A DNA stretch of 41,247 bases from an uncultured Gammaproteobacteria bacterium. GTDB lineage: Bacteria; Patescibacteriota; Patescibacteriia; UBA11705; JABHMO01. The position numbers were made by a program, and so were the translations under genes. The DNA lies in contig CAYSUN010000004.1 in assembly GCA_964434235.1 (NCBI GenBank), positions 1 to 41,247 on the forward strand. Direction: 5' to 3'. The notes below the pieces were generated by a model. It did not search any database. It saw only the letters and a list, made by a program, of their open reading frames with translations, and was not told the DNA's origin. Position 1 is the stretch's first letter. Every line of letters starts with the position of its first letter. Positions 3,643 through 29,498 of the stretch are shown piece after piece.

Positions 3643-5025
3643 TTAACTAGCGTAAACCTTTTGTTTTATCAAATTAATTTCTTGTCTTAATTTTTCATCA
3701 TCGCCAACTAATCTAGATATTTTTTCATGAGCATGCATAGCGGTAGTATGATCTCTTCCACCAAGTTCATGCCCAATCATTGGATAAGAGCAACGTAGTT
3801 CTTCTCTTAGTAAATACATAATAATCTGTCTTGGAAAAGCTAATCTTTTTTCTCTACTTTTTCCAAGAACATCATCAAGTCCAATTTCGTAGAAGCCACT
3901 AACCATTTCAATTAGTTGTTTAGCTGAAACAGTGCCTGATTTTTTACTAGATTCAGAAATGGAAAACAAAATTTTCTTTACATTTTCTAATGTTGGCTCA
4001 ATTTTATTTAGTTGATGATAAGCTATAATTTTATTCAAAGCACCTTCCAGTTCTCGAATGTTATTTTGTATGTTTAGAGTAATATAGTGAATAATTTCTC
4101 TTTCAAGTAAAAATTCTTTTTCTCTACATTTAGATTCTAAAATAGCAATTCTAGTTTCAAGATCTGGTTGAGAAATATCTGCAATCATGCCCCATTCAAA
4201 ACGAGAAAGAAGTCTGTCTTCAAGCGTAGCAATAGCTTTGGGTGGTCTATCTGAAGATAAAATAATTTGTTTATCTCGTTGGTGGAGATCATTAAAAGTA
4301 TGGAAAAAGGCTTCTTGAGTACCTTCTTTGCCAGTTAAAAATTGGATATCGTCAATTAATAAAACATCAGTTGAACGATAAATATTGTTAAATTTTTCTG
4401 CTTTTCCAGAGGAAATGGCATTGATAAAATCATTGGTAAATTGTTCACAAGTAACGTAAAGAATTTTTTTATTACTATTTTTCTGTAAAATTGCATTTCC
4501 GACAGCTTGAAGTAAATGAGTTTTGCCCAAACCAACACCACCATAAATAAATAAAGGATTGTAGGTTAATCCAGGTTTTTCAGAAACAGCAAGTGCTGCG
4601 GCGTGGGCTAATTCATTGGCCTTACCCACAATATAATTTTCAAAAATATATTTAGGATTAAGTCCTTGCGGTTGAACTGTTTTTTCTGTGTGAGTTGGTT
4701 CATTAACTGGGTTTTTGCGTTCTTCTGTTATCGCTTTTTTGATTTGGTCTATTTCTTGTTGGTAAGTTTTTAAGCTTTGAACTTTATAAATGATTTCTTT
4801 TATTCTTTCGCTGGTGTTGGCTTGAAGTATAGTATAAATTTTTTGATGATATTTTTGCTTTAGCCAGGCTTGTGAAAAGGTGTTAGGAACAGCAACCTCA
4901 ATTCGACCTTCTTCATTTTTAATGATAAAAGTATGTTTCAACCAAGTTGTAAAACTGGCCTTACTGAGTGTTAATTCAAGCTCGCCTAGTACGGTTTGCC
5001 AAAGTTGTTCGTTTTGCTCACCCAT
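3643..5025 (-). CDS. dnaA: Chromosomal replication initiator DnaA
   Basis: AAA+ Walker A GVGLGKTHLLQA, a sensor region, and a C-terminal domain IV (RQIIMYLLREEL…SYPMIGHELGGRDHTTAMHA). Confidence 0.97.
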   Translation of the reverse strand: MGEQNEQLWQTVLGELELTLSKASFTTWLKHTFIIKNEEGRIEVAVPNTFSQAWLKQKYHQKIYTILQANTSERIKEIIYKVQSLKTYQQEIDQIKKAITEERKNPVNEPTHTEKTVQPQGLNPKYIFENYIVGKANELAHAAALAVSEKPGLTYNPLFIYGGVGLGKTHLLQAVGNAILQKNSNKKILYVTCEQFTNDFINAISSGKAEKFNNIYRSTDVLLIDDIQFLTGKEGTQEAFFHTFNDLHQRDKQIILSSDRPPKAIATLEDRLLSRFEWGMIADISQPDLETRIAILESKCREKEFLLEREIIHYITLNIQNNIRELEGALNKIIAYHQLNKIEPTLENVKKILFSISESSKKSGTVSAKQLIEMVSGFYEIGLDDVLGKSREKRLAFPRQIIMYLLREELRCSYPMIGHELGGRDHTTAMHAHEKISRLVGDDEKLRQEINLIKQKVYAS

Positions 5026-15164: not shown

Positions 15165-15251
15165 GGAGGGCTGCCGGAGTGGTTGAACGGGACGCTCTCG
15201 AAAAGCGTTGGTCCTTTACCGGTCCCGTGAGTTCAAATCTCACGCCCTCCG
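15165..15251 (+). tRNA. tRNA-Ser (anticodon CGA), class II, CCA not encoded
   Basis: Acceptor stem GGAGGGC/GCCCTCC, T-loop GTGAG-TTCAAAT-CTCAC, anticodon loop CTCGAAA. Flanked by a 9-bp extended complementarity ggcaaagcg/cgctttgcc. Confidence 0.85.
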
Positions 15252-15382
15252 CTTTGCCAGTTTAATAAAAGGACTACAAGTGATTATTGACATTTATTAT
15301 TTATTGGATTAATATACAAAATCGTTTAAGTTTAATGTTGGTTAAGTGCTCAAAAACAGATTTTTGCGAAGGAGGAACTTAG

Positions 15383-16468: not shown

Positions 16469-17194
16469 TTACTCCTCGATCGGAGAGGTGAGTAATTTTC
16501 CGCAGTAAGGACAGGCCTTGATGTTGATTGAATGTCCGCTCTTTCCAATTCTCAAACACGGCAGATTTAATGCCACAGCCCAGAAAATGGTTGGAACAGA
16601 GTCTTTCCCGTGAATCATAGCTTGAAGAGGTTGGGGAAGGCAAAAGTGTTCATAAGTTCCGCCAAAGTTCTTTCGCCAAAATTCTCGTCGTTTTTGTTTT
16701 TCATCCTGCAGTTTTTTGATCGCTCGCCAATGATCAAATCCGAGCATATCTTTGGTCACAGAATCAATATCTACCCAGTGTAGTTCTCTAGCATCAGACT
16801 TGGCTTTAGCCTCAGCAACTTGATATTCTCTAACGTGAGCGATAAAGCACATGGAAATTCGTCGATCTTCATTTGGCTCAAATTCACGAGGATCGCGACC
16901 AATTCCATCCAGCCAAAGCCATTCTTCAAGTTCTTCTGACCTTAGTTGAACATTGATTTCTTCTTGGCATTCACGAATAACTGCTTGGACAACACTGGAA
17001 TCAGGGGGACAACGCAATTGTTCGGGCAGGTTTTTTGAACCAACATTATCAGCATCAACGTGGCCACCTGGCAATACCAGTTTGTCCATTTCTGGTTTCT
17101 TTTTTCGTCTGATTAGGGCAATTTTTTGCCAATTGACAACAACAAGAACATCCACAGTTAGTACGGTTTTTTTTCCTTCAAAAGACATTAGCAC
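16469..17194 (-). CDS. NUDIX-family hydrolase with a C-terminal extension
   Basis: REcQEEInV Nudix-box core after an extended Gx5E region. RBS AAGGAGGTG. Elevated GC. Confidence 0.6.
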   Translation of the reverse strand: MLMSFEGKKTVLTVDVLVVVNWQKIALIRRKKKPEMDKLVLPGGHVDADNVGSKNLPEQLRCPPDSSVVQAVIRECQEEINVQLRSEELEEWLWLDGIGRDPREFEPNEDRRISMCFIAHVREYQVAEAKAKSDARELHWVDIDSVTKDMLGFDHWRAIKKLQDEKQKRREFWRKNFGGTYEHFCLPQPLQAMIHGKDSVPTIFWAVALNLPCLRIGKSGHSINIKACPYCGKLLTSPIEE

Positions 17195-17321
17195 CTCCTT
17201 GTGATTTTCAGCGAAACTGAGCAGTGAACGATATTTAAATAATCAAAGTGCAATGTCTAAGATTATAGTAAATTCATTTTTTTGTCAAGAATAAGAATAT
17301 TAAATTATTGCAAATAAATTA

Positions 17322-17350
17322 AAGCGGATTTGTCGTTGACAAATCCGCTT
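17322..17350 (-). terminator. Hairpin gcggatttgtc-gtt-gacaaatccgc ending the small-protein triplet
   Basis: Read directly. Confidence 0.45.
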
Positions 17351-17356
17351 GTTGGT

Positions 17357-17635
17357 TTATTCACGATTCAGTTGTTCTTGAGTCTTATAAACAAGACCAG
17401 ATTTGATCTTAGAAGGAACATTTTCAAGATCAGTTTGAACTTGACAGCAAGGACACCGAAAAGTTACATAATAATAAGTTTCATCTCGACAGTGACCTCT
17501 AGTTTCATAAAGATCATCTGCTTTGACAAGTAATTTCGCACCACAACCACCATTACCATTTCCCTTGCCAGTACAAACTGCTTCAACCGACCACTCTTTT
17601 TGTGTTTGTGGATGTCCTTTTTTAAGTACTTTCAT
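17357..17635 (-). CDS. Small zinc-ribbon protein, paralog 1 of a tandem triplet (Cx9C … CPCC)
   Basis: MKVLKKG…CTGKGNGNGGCGAKLL…YYYVTFRCPCC. Its start overlaps the preceding gene in ATGAAAGTACTTAA. Confidence 0.55.
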   Translation of the reverse strand: MKVLKKGHPQTQKEWSVEAVCTGKGNGNGGCGAKLLVKADDLYETRGHCRDETYYYVTFRCPCCQVQTDLENVPSKIKSGLVYKTQEQLNRE

Positions 17636-17925
17636 TTTGATTCTCCTTTTGTTTATTGTTTTTCTTCCAAGTAGACTTTGAAAATAGCTGACAATAAATG
17701 ATTAACGGAACTGCATTTAAATTAGTTTCAACACCGCAACATGGACAAGTGAAAGTGATGTAGGTTTCTTTGTCACCGCAAGAGTCAGTGTAGAAGGTTT
17801 TGTATAGGTCAACTTGTTCCACGAGTAATTTTGCGCCACAACCAACGCCACGCTTATCCCCCGCCAGTACAAACTGCTTCGACAGACCAACCTTTTTGGG
17901 GACAACCCTTTTTAAGTACTTTCAT
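17622..17925 (-). pseudogene. Paralog 2 of the zinc-ribbon triplet, interrupted by a +1 frameshift in a G5 run (ggcgggggataa)
   Basis: The N-terminal frame reads MKVLKKGCPQKGWSVEAVCTGGG* and the C-terminal frame reads …GVGCGAKLLVEQVDLYKTFY…TCPCCGVET. The linker has one nucleotide more than paralog 1. Confidence 0.5.
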
Positions 17926-18148
17926 GTTCCCTCCTGGTTTCAACAGCTAAAGTTCTAACTCGTGGATGAACTTCGTTGTACTGAAGTACATTCCATTGTC
18001 CGCAAACAGGGCAGTAATAATGGTAGTCATCACCATCAAATTTAACATCATCTTTTTCAAGAAGTAGCTTGGCTTTGCAGTCTTTGTTGGTGCAAGTTTT
18101 TTCTCTTGACCAATTATCGTTCCAGTGACCATTGTCCAAGATTTTCAT
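17912..18148 (-). CDS. Small zinc-ribbon protein, paralog 3 (Cx4C … CPVC)
   Basis: MKILDNGHW…CTNKDCKAKLLL…YHYYCPVCG. RBS AAGGAG. It ends in the same ATGAAAGTACTTAA overlap. Confidence 0.55.
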   Translation of the reverse strand: MKILDNGHWNDNWSREKTCTNKDCKAKLLLEKDDVKFDGDDYHYYCPVCGQWNVLQYNEVHPRVRTLAVETRREHEST

Positions 18149-18354
18149 AATTGGCTCCTTGGTGCATGGTAAATTGTTAATGAACCCTTGCCATCAGGCA
18201 TAGGCATTGTGCAATGTAATTGTGAATAAGTATATTTAATTTTGTAGTAAAATTTGTATTTATATTTTTATTTTGCTATAATTAGATTAATAATAATAAA
18301 TAATTACTACGAAAATTATCGTAATAAACATAGTGATTCAGCTATTTAATTTAA

Positions 18355-18440
18355 AGCTGCCCGCAGGGCGGCTGCGCGCCAGCGCATAGTAACCCCCTCC
18401 CGCTGTTAATTTAATTGCAGGGAGGGGGTTGGGGGTGGGC
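18355..18440 (+). repeat. GC-rich structured element A (hairpins agctgccc/gggcggct, gcgc-gcca-gcgc, ccccctccc/gggaggggg, then ttgggggtggg)
   Basis: A second copy lies at 26388..26506 and carries a 33-nt insertion. Confidence 0.6.
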
Positions 18441-18453
18441 CAGTTCTATTTTT

Positions 18454-19236
18454 ATGAATAATATGAAGCAATTATCAATAATTGAAAACCAAGAAATTGA
18501 AGAAGTCCTTAGTTCATTTGGATTAAGCGCAAATGAACAAAAAGTATATTTAAGTTTGCTTAGTCTTGGAAAAAGTACACTCAGTCCATTATCAAAAATG
18601 GCTAATCTAAATTTAACAACAGTCCAGTCTATTGTGAAAAGATTGATTAATTTGGGTTTAACAGAAGTTAGTTTGATCAAAACGCGCAGTCTTTACCAAG
18701 CGACCGAGCCAATTACTTTGAAAAAAATTTTGGAAAACAAAATTAAGGAAGTTAGCACTATAATTCCTTTCTTAAAAAAAATTCAGCAAGAAGAAGTTGT
18801 TAGTTCAAAAATAAAAGTTTATTACAAAGACCGAATGACTGAAATTTTTAATCAAATATTAGAGGAAGAAGAGGATGAAGTATTGGAAATAGTATCAGCC
18901 GAAGATTTTCAGGAAATTATTGGTGAAAAATTTCATTTTACAAAAAGACGTGTTGAAAAAAATATAAAACTGAAAAGTTTAAGAATTGAAAATCAAGAAA
19001 TTAAAAAATACAACTCCGAAGTTCACGAAAAAGAACTTCGGCAAGCAAAATTTTTACCGGCTGAGTTAACTTTCCGAAATTCAATTATGATTTGGCAAAA
19101 CAAAGTTGCTTTTTTCACAACCAAAGAAGAAGGCTTAGCTTGGATAGTGGAAAGTTCAACACAAAATGAAATGTGGCGTCAATTATTTGAATTGTTGTGG
19201 AGTGTTAGTCGAAAAATGGAAACCGCGAATAAATAA
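18454..19236 (+). CDS. TrmB-family transcriptional regulator
   Basis: N-terminal wHTH: LSANEQKVYLSLLSLGKSTLSPLSKMANLNLTTVQSIVKRLINLGL. Confidence 0.65.
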   Translation: MNNMKQLSIIENQEIEEVLSSFGLSANEQKVYLSLLSLGKSTLSPLSKMANLNLTTVQSIVKRLINLGLTEVSLIKTRSLYQATEPITLKKILENKIKEVSTIIPFLKKIQQEEVVSSKIKVYYKDRMTEIFNQILEEEEDEVLEIVSAEDFQEIIGEKFHFTKRRVEKNIKLKSLRIENQEIKKYNSEVHEKELRQAKFLPAELTFRNSIMIWQNKVAFFTTKEEGLAWIVESSTQNEMWRQLFELLWSVSRKMETANK

Positions 19237-20845: not shown

Positions 20846-22264
20846 ATGTTTACCAAAAGTAAATATAAGATTATAGCCAGTGTCTTGTTGCTAATTTTTA
20901 CTTTAACTGGTTGTACTAAAGGTGGAACGACTGAAGCAAAAAGTGCTTATAAAGCTGAAGTTTTGAATTGGTGGAGTGTTTGGGATGATTATTCAGACGT
21001 TATTCCTTTGATTGATGCTTATCGAGCGCAACACCCAAATGTTCGAGTTGATTATAGAAAACTTCGTTATGAAGAATACGAAAAAGAATTAATAAACGCG
21101 CTAGCTGAAGATCGTGGACCGGATGTTTTTTCAATTCACAATACTTGGATGAAAAGATATGTAAATAAATTGTTGCCAGCTCCAGCCAGTGTTTCTTTGC
21201 CTATTAAATACACTACTGGTGGTATAAAAAAAGAAGAGGTCGTTGAATTTAGGACGAACAATTTACCATCTCCAGCGGTGGTTAGAAAAAACTTTTTAGA
21301 TGTAGTATCACCTGATGTTATTATGCTTGATGAAACTGGTGCAGAAGATACTTGGCGAGAAAAAGTTTGGGGCTTGCCAATGAGTATGGATACTTTGGTT
21401 ATGTTTTATAATAAAGATATTTTAAATAACGCAGGTATTGTTGAACCAGCGAAAAGTTGGACTGAATTTCAGGATCATGTTAAACGAATTACCAAGATTA
21501 GTAGTGAAACTGGTGAAATATTATTATCTGGCGGTGCAATTGGCACAGCTGATAACGTTGAAAGAAGTTTTGATATTTTGTCTTTATTAATGATGCAGAA
21601 TTTGACACCAATGACCAACCAAGCTGGCTACGCAACTTTTACAGAAGCTCCAAAAAATATTACTAATATTCAAACTCCTCCTGCCATTGGAGCAATTGAT
21701 TTTTATGTTCAGTTTGCTTCACCTTTGCACGAGATTTATACTTGGAACAATCAAATGCCAAATTCCATCGACGCTTTTATTGATGGTAAGGTTGCATATA
21801 TTTTTGGTTATTCATATTACAAAGATCGAATAATGGCCGAAGCGCCACAGTTAAATTGGAGTATTGCTTCAATGCCACAAGTTGGGGATCAACAAAAAGT
21901 TAATTATGCTAGTTATTGGGTACAAGGAGTTTCCAAAAAATCAAAAGTTCCTCAGTATGCTTGGGATTTTGTTAATTTTATAACGGCTGAAGCTAATGTT
22001 CCTGTTTATCTAAATAAAGCTGGAACAACAACTGCTCTTCGTTCAACAAAATTAATTAACGAACATCTAGCCAATGAAGCTTTAGCGGTTCAGGCTGAAC
22101 AGTTGTTAACAGCCAAAAGTTGGTATCGAGGGCAAAGTCCTTTGGCGGCCGAAGATATTTTCGCGACATTAATTAATAGTGTATTACAGGCAGATGTCGA
22201 AGTGGAGGATGCCCTAAAAAATTCAGCTAATCAAATAAATTACTCTATAAATAATTCTTTATGA
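20846..22264 (+). CDS. Lipoprotein, extracellular solute-binding protein (ABC-type sugar SBP-like)
   Basis: Lipobox LTGC. SBP family-1-like length and composition. Confidence 0.6.
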   Translation: MFTKSKYKIIASVLLLIFTLTGCTKGGTTEAKSAYKAEVLNWWSVWDDYSDVIPLIDAYRAQHPNVRVDYRKLRYEEYEKELINALAEDRGPDVFSIHNTWMKRYVNKLLPAPASVSLPIKYTTGGIKKEEVVEFRTNNLPSPAVVRKNFLDVVSPDVIMLDETGAEDTWREKVWGLPMSMDTLVMFYNKDILNNAGIVEPAKSWTEFQDHVKRITKISSETGEILLSGGAIGTADNVERSFDILSLLMMQNLTPMTNQAGYATFTEAPKNITNIQTPPAIGAIDFYVQFASPLHEIYTWNNQMPNSIDAFIDGKVAYIFGYSYYKDRIMAEAPQLNWSIASMPQVGDQQKVNYASYWVQGVSKKSKVPQYAWDFVNFITAEANVPVYLNKAGTTTALRSTKLINEHLANEALAVQAEQLLTAKSWYRGQSPLAAEDIFATLINSVLQADVEVEDALKNSANQINYSINNSL

Positions 22265-22626
22265 GAAAATATTTAATTATCACGATCGTAATCTTTTGGG
22301 GTGTACTTGGGGTGGCACAAAGCACTTTTGCTTTTCCTTCGATTGTGCCTGTAAATTGTCAAGGTAATGCAGAAGTTTCAGTGTGTAACTTAAGTGAAGT
22401 AGAATCAATGATCGGAACTGTTGCTCAAATTGTTTTGGGCTTGGCTGGTTCTGTTACATTGGCAGTATTTGTTGTGGCTGGTATTATGTATACAGCTTCT
22501 GGCGGAAATAAAAATATAATCGGCAAAGCAACGGACATGTTGAAAAATGCTTTTTTGGGATTAGTACTTATATTTTTAGCTGGAGTTATTGTAAAAACTT
22601 TATTAAGTGTCTTAAGTAAGTCTTAG
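22261..22626 (+). CDS. VirB2/TrbC-like (T4SS-type) pilin family protein, paralog 1 of 9
   Basis: Signal peptide, then a hydrophobic helix, the loop YTASGGNKN…, and a second hydrophobic helix. Confidence 0.5.
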   Translation: MRKYLIITIVIFWGVLGVAQSTFAFPSIVPVNCQGNAEVSVCNLSEVESMIGTVAQIVLGLAGSVTLAVFVVAGIMYTASGGNKNIIGKATDMLKNAFLGLVLIFLAGVIVKTLLSVLSKS

Positions 22627-22629
22627 CTT

Positions 22630-22992
22630 TTGTATATGAAAAAAATATTAATAATTACATTTTTAAGTCTATTGATTTTACCAACAATAGTGTTTGCGCA
22701 AGGAGCCGTGTCACAGGCAAAAGCGAAAATTACTTCTGTTATGCCAGGGGAACTAGTGAAAGATGCAGATGCAAATATAATTTTAGGAAATGCAATTAGT
22801 AAGGGGTTGGGGATAATCGGCAGTGTGGCTTTGGTTATTTTTATTGCAAGTGGTATAATATGGATGACCTCAGCTGGGAATGAGAAAAGAGTCAAGCTGG
22901 CTGAGCAAAGTTTAATTTGGGCAGCCTTGGGGTTGTTTGTTATATTTTTCAGTTATATTTTTGTTAATAATGTTATTGGAAAGTTGGGTTAA
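22630..22992 (+). CDS. VirB2/TrbC-like pilin paralog 2
   Basis: …IASGIIWMTSAGNEKRVKLAEQ… flanked by two hydrophobic helices. Confidence 0.5.
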   Translation: MYMKKILIITFLSLLILPTIVFAQGAVSQAKAKITSVMPGELVKDADANIILGNAISKGLGIIGSVALVIFIASGIIWMTSAGNEKRVKLAEQSLIWAALGLFVIFFSYIFVNNVIGKLG

Positions 22993-23038
22993 AAAAAATT
23001 AGAAATTTAAATATAAAAAATAAATAATTTTTACGAAC

Positions 23039-23437
23039 ATGAAGTTAAACACAAACAAAATCAAAGTGTTTGCAGCTTTATTCTTAGCTGTTTTTGCACT
23101 TTCGTTTCTAGCGCTTCCAGTTTTAGCACAAAACAATGATCCATTTGGAGTTACTGCTGTTGGTGGTAATTTAGGACTTGGTAATAAAGATTTAAGAGAA
23201 ACAATTGGTTCTATTATCAAGGCTGCTTTAGGCTTTCTTGGTGTAGTTGCTGTGGTTATTGTTTTGATCGGTGGTTTCAAATACATGACAGCTGGTGGTA
23301 GTGATGAAAAAGTTCAAGATGCTAGAAAATACATTGTTTCTGGTATTATTGGTCTTGCTATTGTTTTGAGCGCTTATGCTATTACAACCTTTGTTGTAAG
23401 TAATTTAATTAGTGCAACAAACGCTAATACTTTGTAA
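23039..23437 (+). CDS. VirB2/TrbC-like pilin paralog 3
   Basis: …LIGGFKYMTAGGSDEKVQDARKY…. Confidence 0.5.
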   Translation: MKLNTNKIKVFAALFLAVFALSFLALPVLAQNNDPFGVTAVGGNLGLGNKDLRETIGSIIKAALGFLGVVAVVIVLIGGFKYMTAGGSDEKVQDARKYIVSGIIGLAIVLSAYAITTFVVSNLISATNANTL

Positions 23438-23517
23438 TTTTTTTGAAGTGGGTAGTTTTACTGCCCCTTCTCATTAGCCAATAATTGTTAATAAAGTTTT
23501 GTTGGTTGATGAGAAGT

Positions 23518-23907
23518 ATGAAAAAGATTATTCCTTTTTTGATGGTAATTTTTATATTTTCTGTACTTGCTATTAGCGTACAGCCAGTTTTGGCTGGGGA
23601 CGCAAGCACAACCAGTTTTAAGGATGGACTTGAAAAAACAAACATTGAAGCAAAGTTAGATACTACTGGCACCGTAGAATCAAAGATTGGTAAAATTGCT
23701 GGTATTATTTTTGGCTTTGTTAGTATTGTTTTTCTGATTATGATTGTTTATGGTGGCATTATTTGGATGACTGCTTCAGGAACTGAAGCTAATGTCAAAA
23801 AAGCTAGGGCAACTTTGGTTCATGCTGCAATTGGTTTATTTGTGACGATGATCTCTTATCAAGTTGCTTCTTATGTAATAACGAAAATTGCAGAAACAAC
23901 TTCCTAA
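23518..23907 (+). CDS. VirB2/TrbC-like pilin paralog 4
   Basis: …VYGGIIWMTASGTEANVKKARAT… The start is taken at MKKIIPF. Confidence 0.5.
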   Translation: MKKIIPFLMVIFIFSVLAISVQPVLAGDASTTSFKDGLEKTNIEAKLDTTGTVESKIGKIAGIIFGFVSIVFLIMIVYGGIIWMTASGTEANVKKARATLVHAAIGLFVTMISYQVASYVITKIAETTS

Positions 23908-23913
23908 TTAAAT

Positions 23914-24306
23914 ATGAAAAATGTTTTTTTATTGTTAGTAGTTATAATGTTAATAGTTTTTAACTTTAGTCTTGCACTTGAGCCTGTTTTGGCTGATGGT
24001 GCAACTGACAAAGCTCAAGCTGGTTTAAAAGCCTCAGCTGATACAGCTGGGTTTTCTACAGCCAAAGCTGAACCAGCTGAAGTTATTGGAAAAGCCTTGA
24101 ACATTTTAATTTCTGTTTTAGGAATTATTTTTGTTATTTTGGTTGTTTATGGTGGTGTAACTTGGATGACCGCTACTGGTAATGCTGATCAAGTTAAAAA
24201 AGCTAGATCCATGATTATAGAAGGTGCACTTGGCATGGCTGTTACTTTGGCTTCCTATTCTTTGGCTTCTTATGTAGTAGAAAAAGCATCCTCAGCCACA
24301 CAATAG
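23914..24306 (+). CDS. VirB2/TrbC-like pilin paralog 5
   Basis: …VYGGVTWMTATGNADQVKKARSM…. Confidence 0.5.
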   Translation: MKNVFLLLVVIMLIVFNFSLALEPVLADGATDKAQAGLKASADTAGFSTAKAEPAEVIGKALNILISVLGIIFVILVVYGGVTWMTATGNADQVKKARSMIIEGALGMAVTLASYSLASYVVEKASSATQ

Positions 24307-24348
24307 TAATTTATCATTTAAACACTTAATCACTAAAACAAGAAATCT

Positions 24349-24393
24349 CCGACGTAAAGTACGGAGTCCGTATAGCCTATGGCTCATCGGACA
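24349..24393 (+). repeat. 45-nt hairpin-rich insertion element, copy 1 (tccgacgtaaagtacggag tccgtatagcc-tat-ggctcatcggac)
   Basis: Inserted into a repeat unit that is uninterrupted at 27826..27880. An inverted copy lies at 29425..29469. Confidence 0.75.
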
Positions 24394-24512
24394 ATAAAAC
24401 ATAAAAACAAGAAAACAAGGAACACAGAACACAGAGCAACCACTTAAGTAGGCTTGCACTTACTACTTAACACTTAATACTTTTTTCACTATTTACTTCT
24501 AACTTCTATATT

Positions 24513-24908
24513 ATGTATAATCTAATTTACAACCAAAACTTTAGACGGATTGCTGTAATTGTTGTGATGATTTGTATGGGATTTATTTTTTCAGCTAGTT
24601 ATGGTTTGGCTAGTCCAACAGAAGAATTAAAAAAAGTTGGGACTGGTATGAATATTACAGCGCCAAAACCAATGCCAGAAGTTATCGGACAAATTATCAA
24701 TATTATTTTAACAATATCTGGAATTATAATGGTGATTTTAGTAGTTTGGGGAGGATTTCAGTGGATGACAGCTGGTGGGAATGAAGATCAGGTCAAGAAA
24801 GCCAAGCAATTATTAATTAACGCCGTTATGGGGTTAGCTATAACTTTATCAGCTTATGCAATTGCCTATTTTGCTGTTGAACAATTAGACAAGGCAACAA
24901 CTACTTAG
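24513..24908 (+). CDS. VirB2/TrbC-like pilin paralog 6
   Basis: …VWGGFQWMTAGGNEDQVKKAKQLLINA…. Confidence 0.55.
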   Translation: MYNLIYNQNFRRIAVIVVMICMGFIFSASYGLASPTEELKKVGTGMNITAPKPMPEVIGQIINIILTISGIIMVILVVWGGFQWMTAGGNEDQVKKAKQLLINAVMGLAITLSAYAIAYFAVEQLDKATTT

Positions 24909-24934
24909 AAGAAATAAATAACTAAATAAATATT

Positions 24935-25339
24935 ATGAAAAAGATATTTGCGATTTTGGCAATTTTAAGCATAATGTTAGTTCCAATGTTAGTTTTTGCT
25001 CAGGGTACGACACCGACAGCTGTAGATTATACAAAGGGTGATCCCAAGGCTGCTTTAACTGATTTAAGGGGTAAATCAGGATATTCAGACAAGTCTGACA
25101 ATTTGGTTGGTGTTATTGGTAATGTCATAAAAATTTTATTAACAGCAGTGGGTATTATAGTAGTAGTTCTTGTTGTTTATGCTGGATTTTTGTGGATGAC
25201 AGCTGGTGGCAATGAAGATCAAGTTAAAAAAGCTAAACAATGGTTAATTAACGCAGTGATTGGCTTAGCCTTGATTATGGCAGCTTATGCAATCTCTGAT
25301 TTCGCTATAACTAATTTAACGACAGCCACAAAAGCCTAA
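24935..25339 (+). CDS. VirB2/TrbC-like pilin paralog 7
   Basis: …VYAGFLWMTAGGNEDQVKKAKQWLINAVIGLALIMAAYAIS…. Confidence 0.55.
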   Translation: MKKIFAILAILSIMLVPMLVFAQGTTPTAVDYTKGDPKAALTDLRGKSGYSDKSDNLVGVIGNVIKILLTAVGIIVVVLVVYAGFLWMTAGGNEDQVKKAKQWLINAVIGLALIMAAYAISDFAITNLTTATKA

Positions 25340-25364
25340 CTTAATTAATATCAGAAAAATAGGT

Positions 25365-25763
25365 ATGAAAAAATTAATTCCAGCTTTAACATTGTTTCTA
25401 GTTTTGTTTATGCCAATTGCTGTTGGAGCGCAGGATTTTTTAGGCGCTGATTACCAGGGTCAACAAACAACTGCTTTTGCTGATTTTAAAACAAAATCAG
25501 GCATGGATGGAAAAGAAAGCAGCTTAGTTGCGATTATAGGAAATGTTGTAAGAATAGTTCTAGTTTTGGTCGGAATAATTGTACTTGTGATTATTGTCTA
25601 TGCTGGTTTTTTGTGGATGACTGCTGGTGGTAATGAAGATCAAGTTAAAAAAGCTAAACAATGGTTAATTAACGCGGTAGTAGGTTTGGCCTTAATTATG
25701 GCAGCTTATGCAATTTCAAGTTTTGTAGTTACTAACTTGTCTTCAGCGACAACGATTAATTGA
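25365..25763 (+). CDS. VirB2/TrbC-like pilin paralog 8
   Basis: Its C-terminal ~80 aa are nearly identical to paralogs 7 and 9, while the N-terminal mature region differs. Confidence 0.55.
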   Translation: MKKLIPALTLFLVLFMPIAVGAQDFLGADYQGQQTTAFADFKTKSGMDGKESSLVAIIGNVVRIVLVLVGIIVLVIIVYAGFLWMTAGGNEDQVKKAKQWLINAVVGLALIMAAYAISSFVVTNLSSATTIN

Positions 25764-25792
25764 AGATTAATAACTAATATATAATAAAAATT

Positions 25793-26191
25793 ATGAAAAA
25801 ACTAATTCCAATTTTGGCACTTTTTTCTTTGCTATTATTCCCTGTGGCCACAATGGCGCAAGACATCTTACAATTAGGTTTGGATGATCAGACGGTTGAA
25901 GAAAATATGGATTATTTTGCTTCAGACTTCGGACAGGATACAGGTGGATCTGATTTGGTTGGGATAATCGGAAATATAGTACGAATCGTTTTGACTTTAT
26001 TGGGCGTTGTTGTACTTGTTATTATTGTTTATGCAGGTTTTTTGTGGATGACAGCTGGTGGTAATGAAGATCAAGTTAAGAAAGCTAAACAATGGCTAAT
26101 TAATGCGATAATAGGTTTAGCCTTAATTTTGGCGGCTTATGCAATTTCAAGTTTTGTAGTAACAAACCTTTCTTCTGCGACAACAATGTAA
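25793..26191 (+). CDS. VirB2/TrbC-like pilin paralog 9
   Basis: Same conserved C-terminal core with a divergent N-terminal region. Confidence 0.55.
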   Translation: MKKLIPILALFSLLLFPVATMAQDILQLGLDDQTVEENMDYFASDFGQDTGGSDLVGIIGNIVRIVLTLLGVVVLVIIVYAGFLWMTAGGNEDQVKKAKQWLINAIIGLALILAAYAISSFVVTNLSSATTM

Positions 26192-26387: not shown

Positions 26388-26506
26388 AGCTGCCGGCAGG
26401 CACCCGCGCGGTAGCGCATAATAGCCCCCTTCCGATACAAGAATAAATTACAGGGAGAGCTTGCCACGTACTTAACGAAGTTATAGTTCGTGGGGTTGGG
26501 GGTGGG
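26388..26506 (+). repeat. GC-rich structured element B (a copy of element A) carrying a 33-nt insertion of the R-family repeat at 26459..26491
   Basis: Removing gcttgccacgtacttaacgaagttatagttcgt restores cagggaga|ggggttgggggtggg, as in element A. Confidence 0.6.
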
Positions 26507-26538
26507 TTCTTTTCAAGTTTGTAAAACTATTACAACTT

Positions 26539-27543: not shown

Positions 27544-27639
27544 AAAACCTACTTTTGTTTTAGAAAAAACGGTACTTAATTAATTATAACTTAGCATTTT
27601 AAGTTCAATGTTGCAAAGTAGTTATGCACATTCTTTCTC

Positions 27640-27960
27640 AAAAAAACAAAAAAACAAGAAATCAATAAATCATTTAAACACTTGATCACTAAAACAAGAA
27701 ATCAATAAAACATAAAAACAATAAATCATTTAATCACGGAACATAGAACACAGAACACGGAACATTAATCATAGAACATAAAATCAAGAAAACAAGAAAA
27801 CATAAAAACACTTAATCATTAAAACACTTAATCACTAAAACAAGAAATCAATAAAACATAAAAACAAGAAAACAAGGAAAAGAAGGATTCAAGTAACAAG
27901 AAAAATTTAATACTTAATACTTAATACTTTTTCTTTTTATTTACTTTTAATTTTTAACTT
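27640..27960 (+). repeat. G-depleted A/C-rich degenerate repeat tract with units such as acaagaaatcaataaa, cacttaatcactaaaa and acttaatac. A related tract lies at 24311..24500.
   Basis: Read directly. It contains the uninterrupted target of the 45-nt element (caagaaatc|aataaaacat). Confidence 0.7.
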
Positions 27961-28909: not shown

Positions 28910-28987
28910 AAACACGTGTCCCCCGAAGTTTCAACACAGGTAGAAGAATACAAAAAAGCAAAAAAGCAAGAAAACAAGAAAGCAAAT

Positions 28988-29356
28988 ATGAATGATTATC
29001 AAAAAAGATTAAAAGGATTAATGGACGAGTATGTTCATTATGTCTATAAATTGACAAAAAAATTTCCGCGGGAAGAAATATATGGCTTAGTTTCACAGTT
29101 AAGAAGATCTGCAATTTCCATAATACTAAATTATATTGAAGGATACGCAAGAAGAAGAACGCTAGTTAGGTTTAATATGTTAGAAACGTCGTATGGTTCA
29201 TTTCAAGAAACTAAATATATAGTGCAATTTTCTTTAATTGAGGGTTATATTTCAAAAGAAGATTATTTAAATATAGAATTATTAGAAAAAGAAATTGGTG
29301 CTATGCTGTGGACCGAATTAACAAAATTAGAAGGCAGTATTAAAGCTGTAAAGTAA
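28988..29356 (+). CDS. Four-helix-bundle protein ('23S rRNA intervening-sequence protein' family)
   Basis: …EEIYGLVSQLRRSAISIILNYIEGYARR… is the family signature. About 122 aa from the ATG at 28988. Confidence 0.75.
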   Translation: MNDYQKRLKGLMDEYVHYVYKLTKKFPREEIYGLVSQLRRSAISIILNYIEGYARRRTLVRFNMLETSYGSFQETKYIVQFSLIEGYISKEDYLNIELLEKEIGAMLWTELTKLEGSIKAVK

Positions 29357-29424
29357 TAATATTTATTTGGCTCTTTGTTTTTTAATCGTGTATTTCTCTT
29401 TTAGTGGCTTGTGTTTTCTTGTCC

Positions 29425-29469
29425 GATGAGCCATGGGCTATACGGACTCCGTACTTTACGTCGGAGATT
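29425..29469 (-). repeat. 45-nt hairpin-rich insertion element, copy 2 (inverted orientation, 1 mismatch located in a hairpin loop)
   Basis: Its reverse complement equals 24349..24393 except tat→cat in the loop of the agcc/ggct stem. Confidence 0.75.
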
Positions 29470-29498
29470 TATTGATTTTTTGTTTTATTGAAGTCTCT

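Follow-up and report, generated by a model that had tools for sequence, protein, structure and literature searches.

A stretch of 41,247 nucleotides (nt), positions 1 to 41,247 of contig CAYSUN010000004.1 (assembly GCA_964434235.1) and called the window here, carries on its minus strand three small genes in tandem, A, B, and C, which encode proteins of the zinc-ribbon type. On one side the array faces a divergently transcribed gene for a TrmB-like regulator, and on the other side it is followed on the same strand by a gene for a NUDIX hydrolase. We consider it reasonably probable that the trio belongs to a regulated NUDIX cassette, that its products are accessory partners of enzymes of nicotinamide adenine dinucleotide (NAD), ADP-ribose, and purine salvage, and that gene B is a recent pseudogene. 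All positions are those of the whole 41-kb window; A, B, and C are all on the minus strand and were read there (17300 to 18260).

Gene A (17912 to 18148, by open reading frame and translation) encodes 78 amino acids (aa) and is a short-loop zinc-ribbon paralog, with the Cys pattern C-x4-C (CTNKDC) followed by CPVC(G). Gene C (17357 to 17635) encodes 92 aa and is a canonical family member (CTGKGNGNGGCGAKLLV ... CPCCQVQTD), with the pattern C-x9-C (CTGKGNGNGGC) followed by CPCC. Gene B, which lies between them, is divided over two frames. Its 5' part (17854 to 17925) starts with the ATG at 17925 and runs in frame 0 for 23 codons (MKVLKKGCPQKGWSVEAVCTGGG) to a TAA at 17856 to 17854, and its 3' part (17622 to 17858) runs in the +1 frame from the GAT at 17858 to a TAA at 17624 to 17622, a stretch of 78 stop-free codons that keeps GCGAKLLVE and CPCCGVET. 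Each of the three has four Cys residues in two pairs, and B and C open with an identical MKVLKKG. An earlier note, made by a model from the letters of the DNA, had described the genes as three small tandem paralogs with two Cys pairs, and translation, the family hidden Markov model (HMM), and hhalign all bear this out. In the HMM search, C scored 123 bits, the two frames of B scored 31 bits (5' part, family positions 1 to 23) and 66 bits (3' part, positions 12 to 90), and A scored 24 to 26 bits; against the family profile, A reached an hhalign probability of 97% (E 5.7e-11). The three genes are paralogs, A being a distant short-loop one. B and C are old paralogs rather than a fresh duplicate, with a nucleotide identity in the DNA alignment of 70 to 80% across the first 120 nt and 40 to 60% beyond.

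The genes are joined by two junctions (17912 to 17925 and 17622 to 17635) that carry the same 14-mer, ATGAAAGTACTTAA, which an exact-match search found in exactly two copies in the window, both of them here. Junction 1 is a 14-nt overlap that holds the start of B and the stop of A, and junction 2 holds the start of C and the stop of B in the +1 frame; the TAA inside the 14-mer is the stop of the upstream gene each time, A ending in ...HEST* and B in ...NEST*. The identical start/stop overlaps of the earlier note are thus exactly as it reported them. A Shine-Dalgarno sequence is located inside the upstream gene at each downstream start (AGGAGG for B, AAGGAG for C), and A has its own, AAGGAG, at 18160 to 18155. 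Because of the overlapping junctions and these internal Shine-Dalgarno sequences, A, B, and C are probably coupled in translation, as had also been proposed. The identity of the two junctions is a by-product of the conserved N terminus of the family and its AT-rich codons and no special signal, since MKVLK is encoded as ATG AAA GTA CTT AAA, which holds an out-of-frame TAA. An analogous junction in another frame is found in L069 (loci compared with the window are designated L with a number), where the upstream TGA lies inside ATGCAAGTCCTGA, the M-Q-V-L-K codons of the next gene. On the 3' side of C, an intrinsic-terminator-like hairpin (17312 to 17350, minus strand) consists of a 13-bp stem at 17350 to 17322 with a 3-nt loop, followed by the T-rich tail TAATTTATTT, in line with the hairpin terminator noted before. 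The elevated GC content that had been ascribed to the block is only a mild rise, with a value of 0.385 versus 0.331 in the window and local windows of 0.36 to 0.45.

With gene C as the query, 102 homolog clusters were obtained, and an exhaustive profile search gave 929 clusters at 50% identity. The family is common to ultra-small bacteria like those of the candidate phyla radiation (CPR), other bacteria, and phages, and its consensus is MKVLKKGRxQKGWSxExxCTGxGNGxGGCGAKLLVExxDLYxT...YVTFxCPxCGVxTD, in which C21, C31, C61, C64, G23, G25, N26, and D69 are invariant across 96 family sequences. The confident AlphaFold2 model of gene C (predicted local distance difference test score, 82.7) has five β-strands (residues 16 to 20, 34 to 38, 42 to 49, 52 to 60, and 67 to 70) and two zinc knuckles, with the Cys residues placed in loops that join the strands. 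With two Cys knuckles and, as modeled, a β-hairpin scaffold, A, B, and C have the features of generic zinc ribbons, and they are predicted to bind zinc. Scans of A, repaired B, and C against Pfam, PHROGs, NCBIfam, and PADLOC gave no significant family (for Pfam, no match at E ≤ 1), no PDB sequence matched the family profile with an E value under 0.05, and no description of the family was found in the literature searched. Paralog arrays of 2 to 4 copies occur in about a fifth of the loci, usually as one canonical copy with the Gly-rich loop plus short-loop copies; L069 holds four copies.

The frameshift in gene B

Gene B is interrupted at GGC GGG GGA TAA, where one base is extra and the run of five G residues (G5) occupies 17862 to 17858. 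In the DNA alignment, B is longer than C by one base between ACT and TGTGG, which agrees with the earlier note's remark that the middle copy is one base longer at this run; which base is extra is ambiguous, and it may be a G of the G5 or equally the T of GGA-T-AAG. Repaired B reads TGGDKRGVGC without one G and TGGGKRGVGC, with the invariant G25 retained, without the T. In either case the invariant N26 and D69 are lost, with K and N in their places, and if a G is the additional base, G25 is replaced by D as well. The protein of gene C is also encoded elsewhere, on further contigs. One of these, the 3,032-nt k141 contig L012, belongs to a separate ENA assembly; across 2,762 nt it matches the window at 100% identity, with the break (ACTGGCGGGGGATAAGCG) included, and its gene caller likewise left a gap at B. 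A one-off assembly error is therefore unlikely. Among 5.8 billion protein clusters, in which A and C of the same genome are present, there is no intact ortholog of B, and the best match to repaired B has 58% identity.

The break had been read before either as a slippage-prone on/off switch or as a pseudogene, and the second option is the one that holds up, given the identical break in L012 and the violation of invariant positions in repaired B. Most probably, B is a copy that recently lost its reading frame, a pseudogene in an array of paralogs that evolves by birth and death. The turnover of such arrays is supported by copy numbers that vary from 1 to 4 between relatives, and in L025 (IMGVR_UViG_3300036715_002050, 4001 to 4272) a frameshift following ...HDYGGG divides a further family member, at a position other than that in B. 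Ribosomes arriving from A would enter B by coupling and be released 23 codons later; translation of C would then start from the Shine-Dalgarno sequence that belongs to C itself. One observation weighs on the other side: 78 stop-free codons past the shift (P about 0.003 by shuffling) and a preserved junction with C are also expected of a frameshift that is bypassed by recoding. They fit recent inactivation equally well, and alone they do not discriminate between the two.

A phase-variable switch would mean that slipped-strand mispairing turns B ON at G4 and OFF at G5 across the population, and the break does lie in or beside a homopolymer with the downstream frame still open. Phase-variation contingency tracts typically have 7 to 8 or more G/C, however, and a G5 is short for such a tract; it is one of 13 G5/C5 runs in the window, none longer, and its length is thus simply the window maximum for G/C. 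The same G5 is present in the independent assembly L012, no protein of the ON state occurs in the clusters that do contain A and C, the extra base may be a T and no G at all, and the repaired product would be without N26 and D69 (and without G25 if the extra base is a G). We therefore give the switch almost no credence. Transcriptional slippage at B was also considered and rejected, as G5 is far below known slippage-tract lengths. A programmed ribosomal frameshift, either +1 at GGG-G or −2 from GGA onto GGG with the TAA in the A site, would yield full-length B, and it would account for an in-frame stop placed directly after a run that permits tRNA-Gly re-pairing as well as for the 78 open codons in the correct frame up to the preserved coupling junction. 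With the stop in the A site, however, a P-site GGA would re-pair poorly or not at all at +1 (GAU), and a +1 slip from GGG to GGG needs a slow A-site codon, whereas GGA is common (16.4 per 1,000). There is no separate Shine-Dalgarno-like stimulator at a prfB-like spacing, no ortholog keeps the site (the database holds no close ortholog of B), L025, which has the sole other split copy seen, breaks elsewhere, and the product would be without the invariant loop residues; recoding of this kind is very improbable. A sequencing or assembly artifact, with B intact in the organism, has in its favor that a single-base indel beside a homopolymer is a classic error type, but L012 stems from another ENA analysis and is identical over the site, the gene callers of that assembly skipped B too, and several codons of the loop around the break are aberrant beyond a mere shift, all of which makes an artifact highly unlikely. 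The frameshift looks like ordinary gene decay in a duplicating array, and reporting the break as a switch is unwarranted.

The conserved cassette and its intergenic block

Neighbors were clustered without bias over 87 non-redundant loci from genome, viral, and metagenome collections, and TrmB-like and NUDIX genes formed the two dominant clusters. Of the 65 non-redundant loci in which the flank was long enough, 15 had a divergent TrmB-like gene upstream; of 70 loci, 12 had downstream, on the same strand, a NUDIX gene related to that of the window, and both occurred together in 11 loci; the check on co-occurrence with NUDIX genes elsewhere, which the earlier note had proposed, is thereby positive. 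The conserved cassette consists of a divergent TrmB-like regulator, then 1 to 4 zinc-ribbon genes, and then a NUDIX gene of the ADP-ribose pyrophosphatase type. It is seen in L010/L011, L014/L015, and L012, and the GC content of cassette loci ranges from 0.24 to 0.58. In a variant in L092 (3001 to 4989), genes for a phosphoribosyl pyrophosphate (PRPP)-synthetase-like protein and an NTPase_I-T protein replace the NUDIX gene behind the TrmB/zinc-ribbon pair, an arrangement that mirrors fusion proteins of a zinc ribbon and NTPase_I-T. The reading of the module as a recently acquired island is not supported: L014, a 63%-identical relative, shares the flank on the TrmB side (an 83-aa gene, NTP-transferase, SBP, and an array of type IV secretion system [T4SS] pilin genes), and this synteny argues against recent acquisition in the window. 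The pilin array, which adjoins the cassette in L014 too, extends in the window from 22261 to 26191 and comprises about eleven tandem T4SS-pilin paralogs (PF18895/TrbC-like) of 120 to 140 aa with a periodicity of 400 to 430 nt.

The NUDIX and divergent TrmB-like neighbors named in the earlier note are both confirmed by Pfam. The NUDIX gene (16469 to 17188, minus strand) encodes 239 aa and matches PF00293 at E 1.5e-10 (41.7 bits versus a cutoff of 21.1 bits). Its nearest PDB match is 2qjt (E 1.6e-6), and its top NCBIfam matches are NadM-Nudix models, of which NF003785 aligns partially at E 5e-10 with 39 bits against a curated cutoff of 418 bits. By these matches, the window NUDIX is most similar to the NadM-Nudix/NrtR (ADP-ribose pyrophosphatase) type, and a specificity for ADP-ribose is predicted. 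The catalytic RE-x2-EE is present as RECQEE; in the alignment, 17 additional aa interrupt the Nudix box, an insertion seen in the lineage of the window, and the Gly that follows is replaced. An extra C-terminal module of about 65 aa (H/C..C..CPYCG, 16469 to 16690) is shared with the NUDIX proteins of L014, L029, L041, and L052 and absent from those of the other cassette loci; this H/C ... C ... CPxCG module may represent yet another kind of zinc module, the third in the cassette. A candidate promoter of the NUDIX gene (17262 to 17288, minus strand) has a perfect TTGACA and TATAAT with a 15-nt spacer; it was read by eye, as the promoter scan required a spacer of 16 to 18 nt and hence did not list it. 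About 1.2 kb past the NUDIX gene, ARAGORN places a tRNA-Ser(CGA) at 15165 to 15252, and the Rfam scan at the gathering threshold gives only two other tRNAs. On the other side of the array, the TrmB-like regulator gene (18457 to 19236, plus strand) encodes 259 aa, of which residues 18 to 85 match PF01978 at E 5e-12 (45.9 bits versus a cutoff of 25.6 bits). Residues 90 to 259 have no Pfam match, including none to a sugar-binding effector domain such as that of archaeal TrmB, and only weak partial matches in NCBIfam.

Between the regulator gene and the array lies an operator/promoter block, the geometry of which is fixed in 18 of 20 cassette loci (the window, L003, L004, L010, L014, L029, L030, L032, L041, L042, L045, L052, L069, L070, L080, L089, L092, and L098). 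Starting from the TrmB start codon, the first part is the palindrome TACGA-N6-TCGTA (O1). After roughly 20 nt come TATAAT and a −35 box resembling TTGACA, which are directed toward TrmB, and then a half-site with the consensus CTACGAAAAT (O2) on the side of the zinc-ribbon genes; the O1-O2 spacing of about 66 nt is fixed across loci. In the window, O1 (18308 to 18323) is a candidate operator located between the −10 box and the start of TrmB; it is single in the 41 kb and had 0 matches in 100 shuffles. The TrmB promoter (18254 to 18282, plus strand) consists of the −35 box TTGTAT (18254 to 18259), a 17-nt spacer, and the −10 box TATAAT (18277 to 18282), and the GCTATAATTA and TTGACA-like columns are conserved here in an alignment of 19 loci. 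O2 (18238 to 18249, minus strand) reads TACTACAAAATT in the window and lies 3 nt upstream of a candidate −10 box of the array, TATACT (18234 to 18229). The block is a candidate operator set for this subfamily of TrmB-like regulators, through which the protein would repress both divergent promoters, that of its own gene and that of the zinc-ribbon array, by way of O1 and O2. An RNA stem formed by two inverted CTACGAAAAT motifs was rejected, because the motifs flank the TrmB promoter and would fall on different transcripts.

In the window, a GC-rich, structured, hairpin-forming element of 95 nt (18353 to 18447, plus strand) is inserted between O1 and the TrmB ATG, and a second copy is present at 26388 to 26512. 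It is composed of AGCTGCCnGCAGG ... AGCGCATAnTAnCCCCCTnCCG ... CAGGGAG ... GGGGTTGGGGGTGGG in a contig of 33% GC and is absent from all other fetched loci, occurring in this genome only. An Rfam search of the region and of the whole window returned no RNA family for the element or for the intergenic block, and the element could be a small mobile element or an uncharacterized RNA.

Links to NAD and ADP-ribose salvage enzymes

Ten long family members were scanned for additional domains, and in-frame fusions were found to NUDIX in four, to NTPase_I-T in two, and to adenine phosphoribosyltransferase (Apt) in one. The fused Apt scores 206 bits, above the curated cutoff. The two fused NUDIX moieties tested (P0163 and P0249) are 35 to 40% identical to the window NUDIX (E 1e-30) and therefore provide a Rosetta-stone link for the exact gene pair of the window, and those of P0163, P0218, and P0249 retain the catalytic RE-x2-EE. 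Gene neighborhoods lead to the same metabolism. At 58 loci that lack the cassette, 150 same-strand neighbor open reading frames were classified by Pfam, and the five families encountered most often, NAPRTase (5), NAD_synthase (3), ADP_ribosyl_GH (2), NAMPT_N (2), and NADAR (2), all belong to NAD/ADP-ribose metabolism. The genes are separated by gaps or overlaps of 2 to 4 nt in L018, L040, and L053 and are closely adjacent in L038 and L072. In L053, NAPRTase is followed by a zinc-ribbon gene with a 4-nt overlap; L018 has the order NAPRTase-like, zinc ribbon, zinc ribbon, NadE, the NAPRTase-like call coming from BLAST clustering with L053 and L072 and the gene being without a Pfam match of its own. 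In L040, a zinc-ribbon gene precedes NadE and a gene with a weak isochorismatase match just under the Pfam cutoff; in L038 it precedes Nampt, in L001 a bona fide NrtR, and in L092 the order is TrmB, zinc ribbon, PRPP-synthetase-like, NTPase_I-T. The function that the earlier note had left as unknown is thereby narrowed to an NAD/ADP-ribose salvage context.

From these fusions and neighborhoods, we infer a partner role for the zinc-ribbon proteins. They would bind salvage enzymes as accessory subunits, acting as adaptor, stabilizer, or regulator, and the contact may involve the invariant Gly-rich loop (CTGxGNGxGGCGA) and the conserved, flexible N terminus (MKVLKKGRxQKGW). Some observations weigh against this role and its tie to the cassette. 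About 75 to 80% of the family loci are without TrmB or a related NUDIX, many of them amid unannotated small phage genes, and the role of the family may be more general than that of a cassette component or NAD-related partner. In the window, moreover, a terminator lies between the zinc-ribbon array and the NUDIX gene, so that the two are not strictly one operon.

As a functional analogy, Trm112-type proteins are small zinc-ribbon activator subunits. Like them, the window family comprises small (<100 aa) four-Cys zinc-ribbon proteins that are tied to several different enzymes by adjacency or fusion, but its partners are nucleotide, NAD, and ADP-ribose enzymes, whereas those of Trm112 are methyltransferases, and no sequence or fold similarity to Trm112/DUF343 was detected. 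Classic members of NrtR regulons are NAPRTase/Nampt, NadE, PRPP-synthetase-like, and PncA-type genes, and the family is linked to NAPRTase/Nampt, NadE, and PRPP-synthetase-like genes and to a weak isochorismatase (PncA-type fold) match. The cassette NUDIX is nearest to the NadM-Nudix/NrtR modules and NrtR regulons treated in excerpts of PMC2330246, and in L001 a true NrtR is directly downstream of the zinc-ribbon gene; the window differs from NrtR systems in its TrmB-like regulator with the operator TACGA-N6-TCGTA and in a NUDIX with a Nudix-box insertion and an extra C-terminal Cys module. No mention of a zinc-ribbon component was found in the excerpts of the NrtR literature searched. The zinc-binding domain zf-NADH-PPase of NudC is likewise a Cys4 zinc module joined to a NUDIX that acts on NAD-related substrates. 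The window family, in contrast, has no Pfam match to this domain at E ≤ 1; its module is encoded on its own or fused N-terminally and is distinguished by a Gly-rich knuckle of 9 residues. In phages, NAD+ rebuilding and ADP-ribose processing are described in excerpts of bioRxiv 10.1101/2024.02.11.579819, PMC13464706, and PMC7824862. As in the phage NAD+ clusters (NARP1, NARP2, NARP3, and jumbo-phage NAD systems), the family adjoins Nampt/NAPRTase, NAD synthase, NADAR, and ADP-ribosylglycohydrolase in viral and metagenomic contigs; the excerpts describe the NARP, NARP3, and jumbo-phage systems with enzymes and a transporter and without a small zinc-ribbon gene, and the window, for its part, belongs to a CPR-like cellular contig, not to a phage.

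The proteins could instead be nucleic acid binders rather than enzyme adaptors, either as regulators of transcription or translation or as binders of RNA ends that steer the NUDIX to NAD-capped or triphosphate RNA. Zinc ribbons often bind nucleic acids, the N terminus of the family is basic and conserved, and one JGI record labels a member an RNA-binding Zn-ribbon protein; furthermore, regulators of NAD and purine metabolism often combine a sensor enzyme with a DNA-binding domain, as NrtR does according to the excerpts of PMC2330246, a design that the fusions of a zinc ribbon with NUDIX or phosphoribosyltransferase could follow. The cassette already has a dedicated regulator with conserved operators of its own, however, the Apt moiety of the fusion scores like a genuine enzyme, and the fused NUDIX moieties of P0163, P0218, and P0249 keep their catalytic motif, so that we regard nucleic acid binding as an unlikely main function. 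Less likely still, the proteins would be of a phage antidefense or antirestriction type, resembling Lar or an inhibitor, and would simply accompany counterdefense genes for NAD salvage. The family is indeed frequent in viral contigs amid small early-type genes, and its neighbors NADAR, ADP-ribosylglycohydrolase, and Nampt are known or proposed phage counterdefense genes (excerpts of PMC7824862 and bioRxiv 10.1101/2024.02.11.579819). The Lar restriction-alleviation family (PF14354) also consists of small Cys proteins with a CPxCG motif in mobile elements. A, B, and C do not match its profile, however, and their gene context is another one; as Pfam at E ≤ 1 gives neither Lar nor any other family and PADLOC gives nothing, the Lar-like, antirestriction identity suggested in the earlier note is not supported. 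Fusion in frame with metabolic enzymes also speaks against an antidefense role, as does a chromosomal cassette that is regulated and, in cellular metagenome-assembled genomes, conserved with its flanks.

Elsewhere in the window, intergenic A-rich repeat arrays with a period of 8 nt (ACAAGAAA / ACATAAAA / TCAATAAA / ACACTTAA) are found at 27622 to 27914, 24298 to 24440, and 28943 to 28989 and, inverted, at 29409 to 29490; a stretch of 82 nt is common to 24323 to 24404 and, inverted, 29409 to 29490.

Beyond the partner role in the cassette, we propose tentatively, and with more doubt than confidence, that the CTGxGNGxGGCGA family belongs to NAD+/ADP-ribose salvage as a widespread component that has so far gone unrecognized. 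As a small subunit or a module for ligand binding, it would be required by ADP-ribose NUDIX, NAPRTase/Nampt, NAD synthase, Apt, and NTPase_I-T enzymes for activity or regulation. If this is true, the family would be part of the rebuilding of NAD+ by phages after its depletion by the host, and NAD+ depletion and its reversal are central to research on the conflict between phages and bacteria. NAD and nucleotide salvage is also vital for the reduced genomes of CPR bacteria. The family thus offers a concrete, cheaply testable candidate for a missing accessory factor in NAD/ADP-ribose pathways, and the TrmB-type operator block defines a new candidate regulon for comparative genomics.

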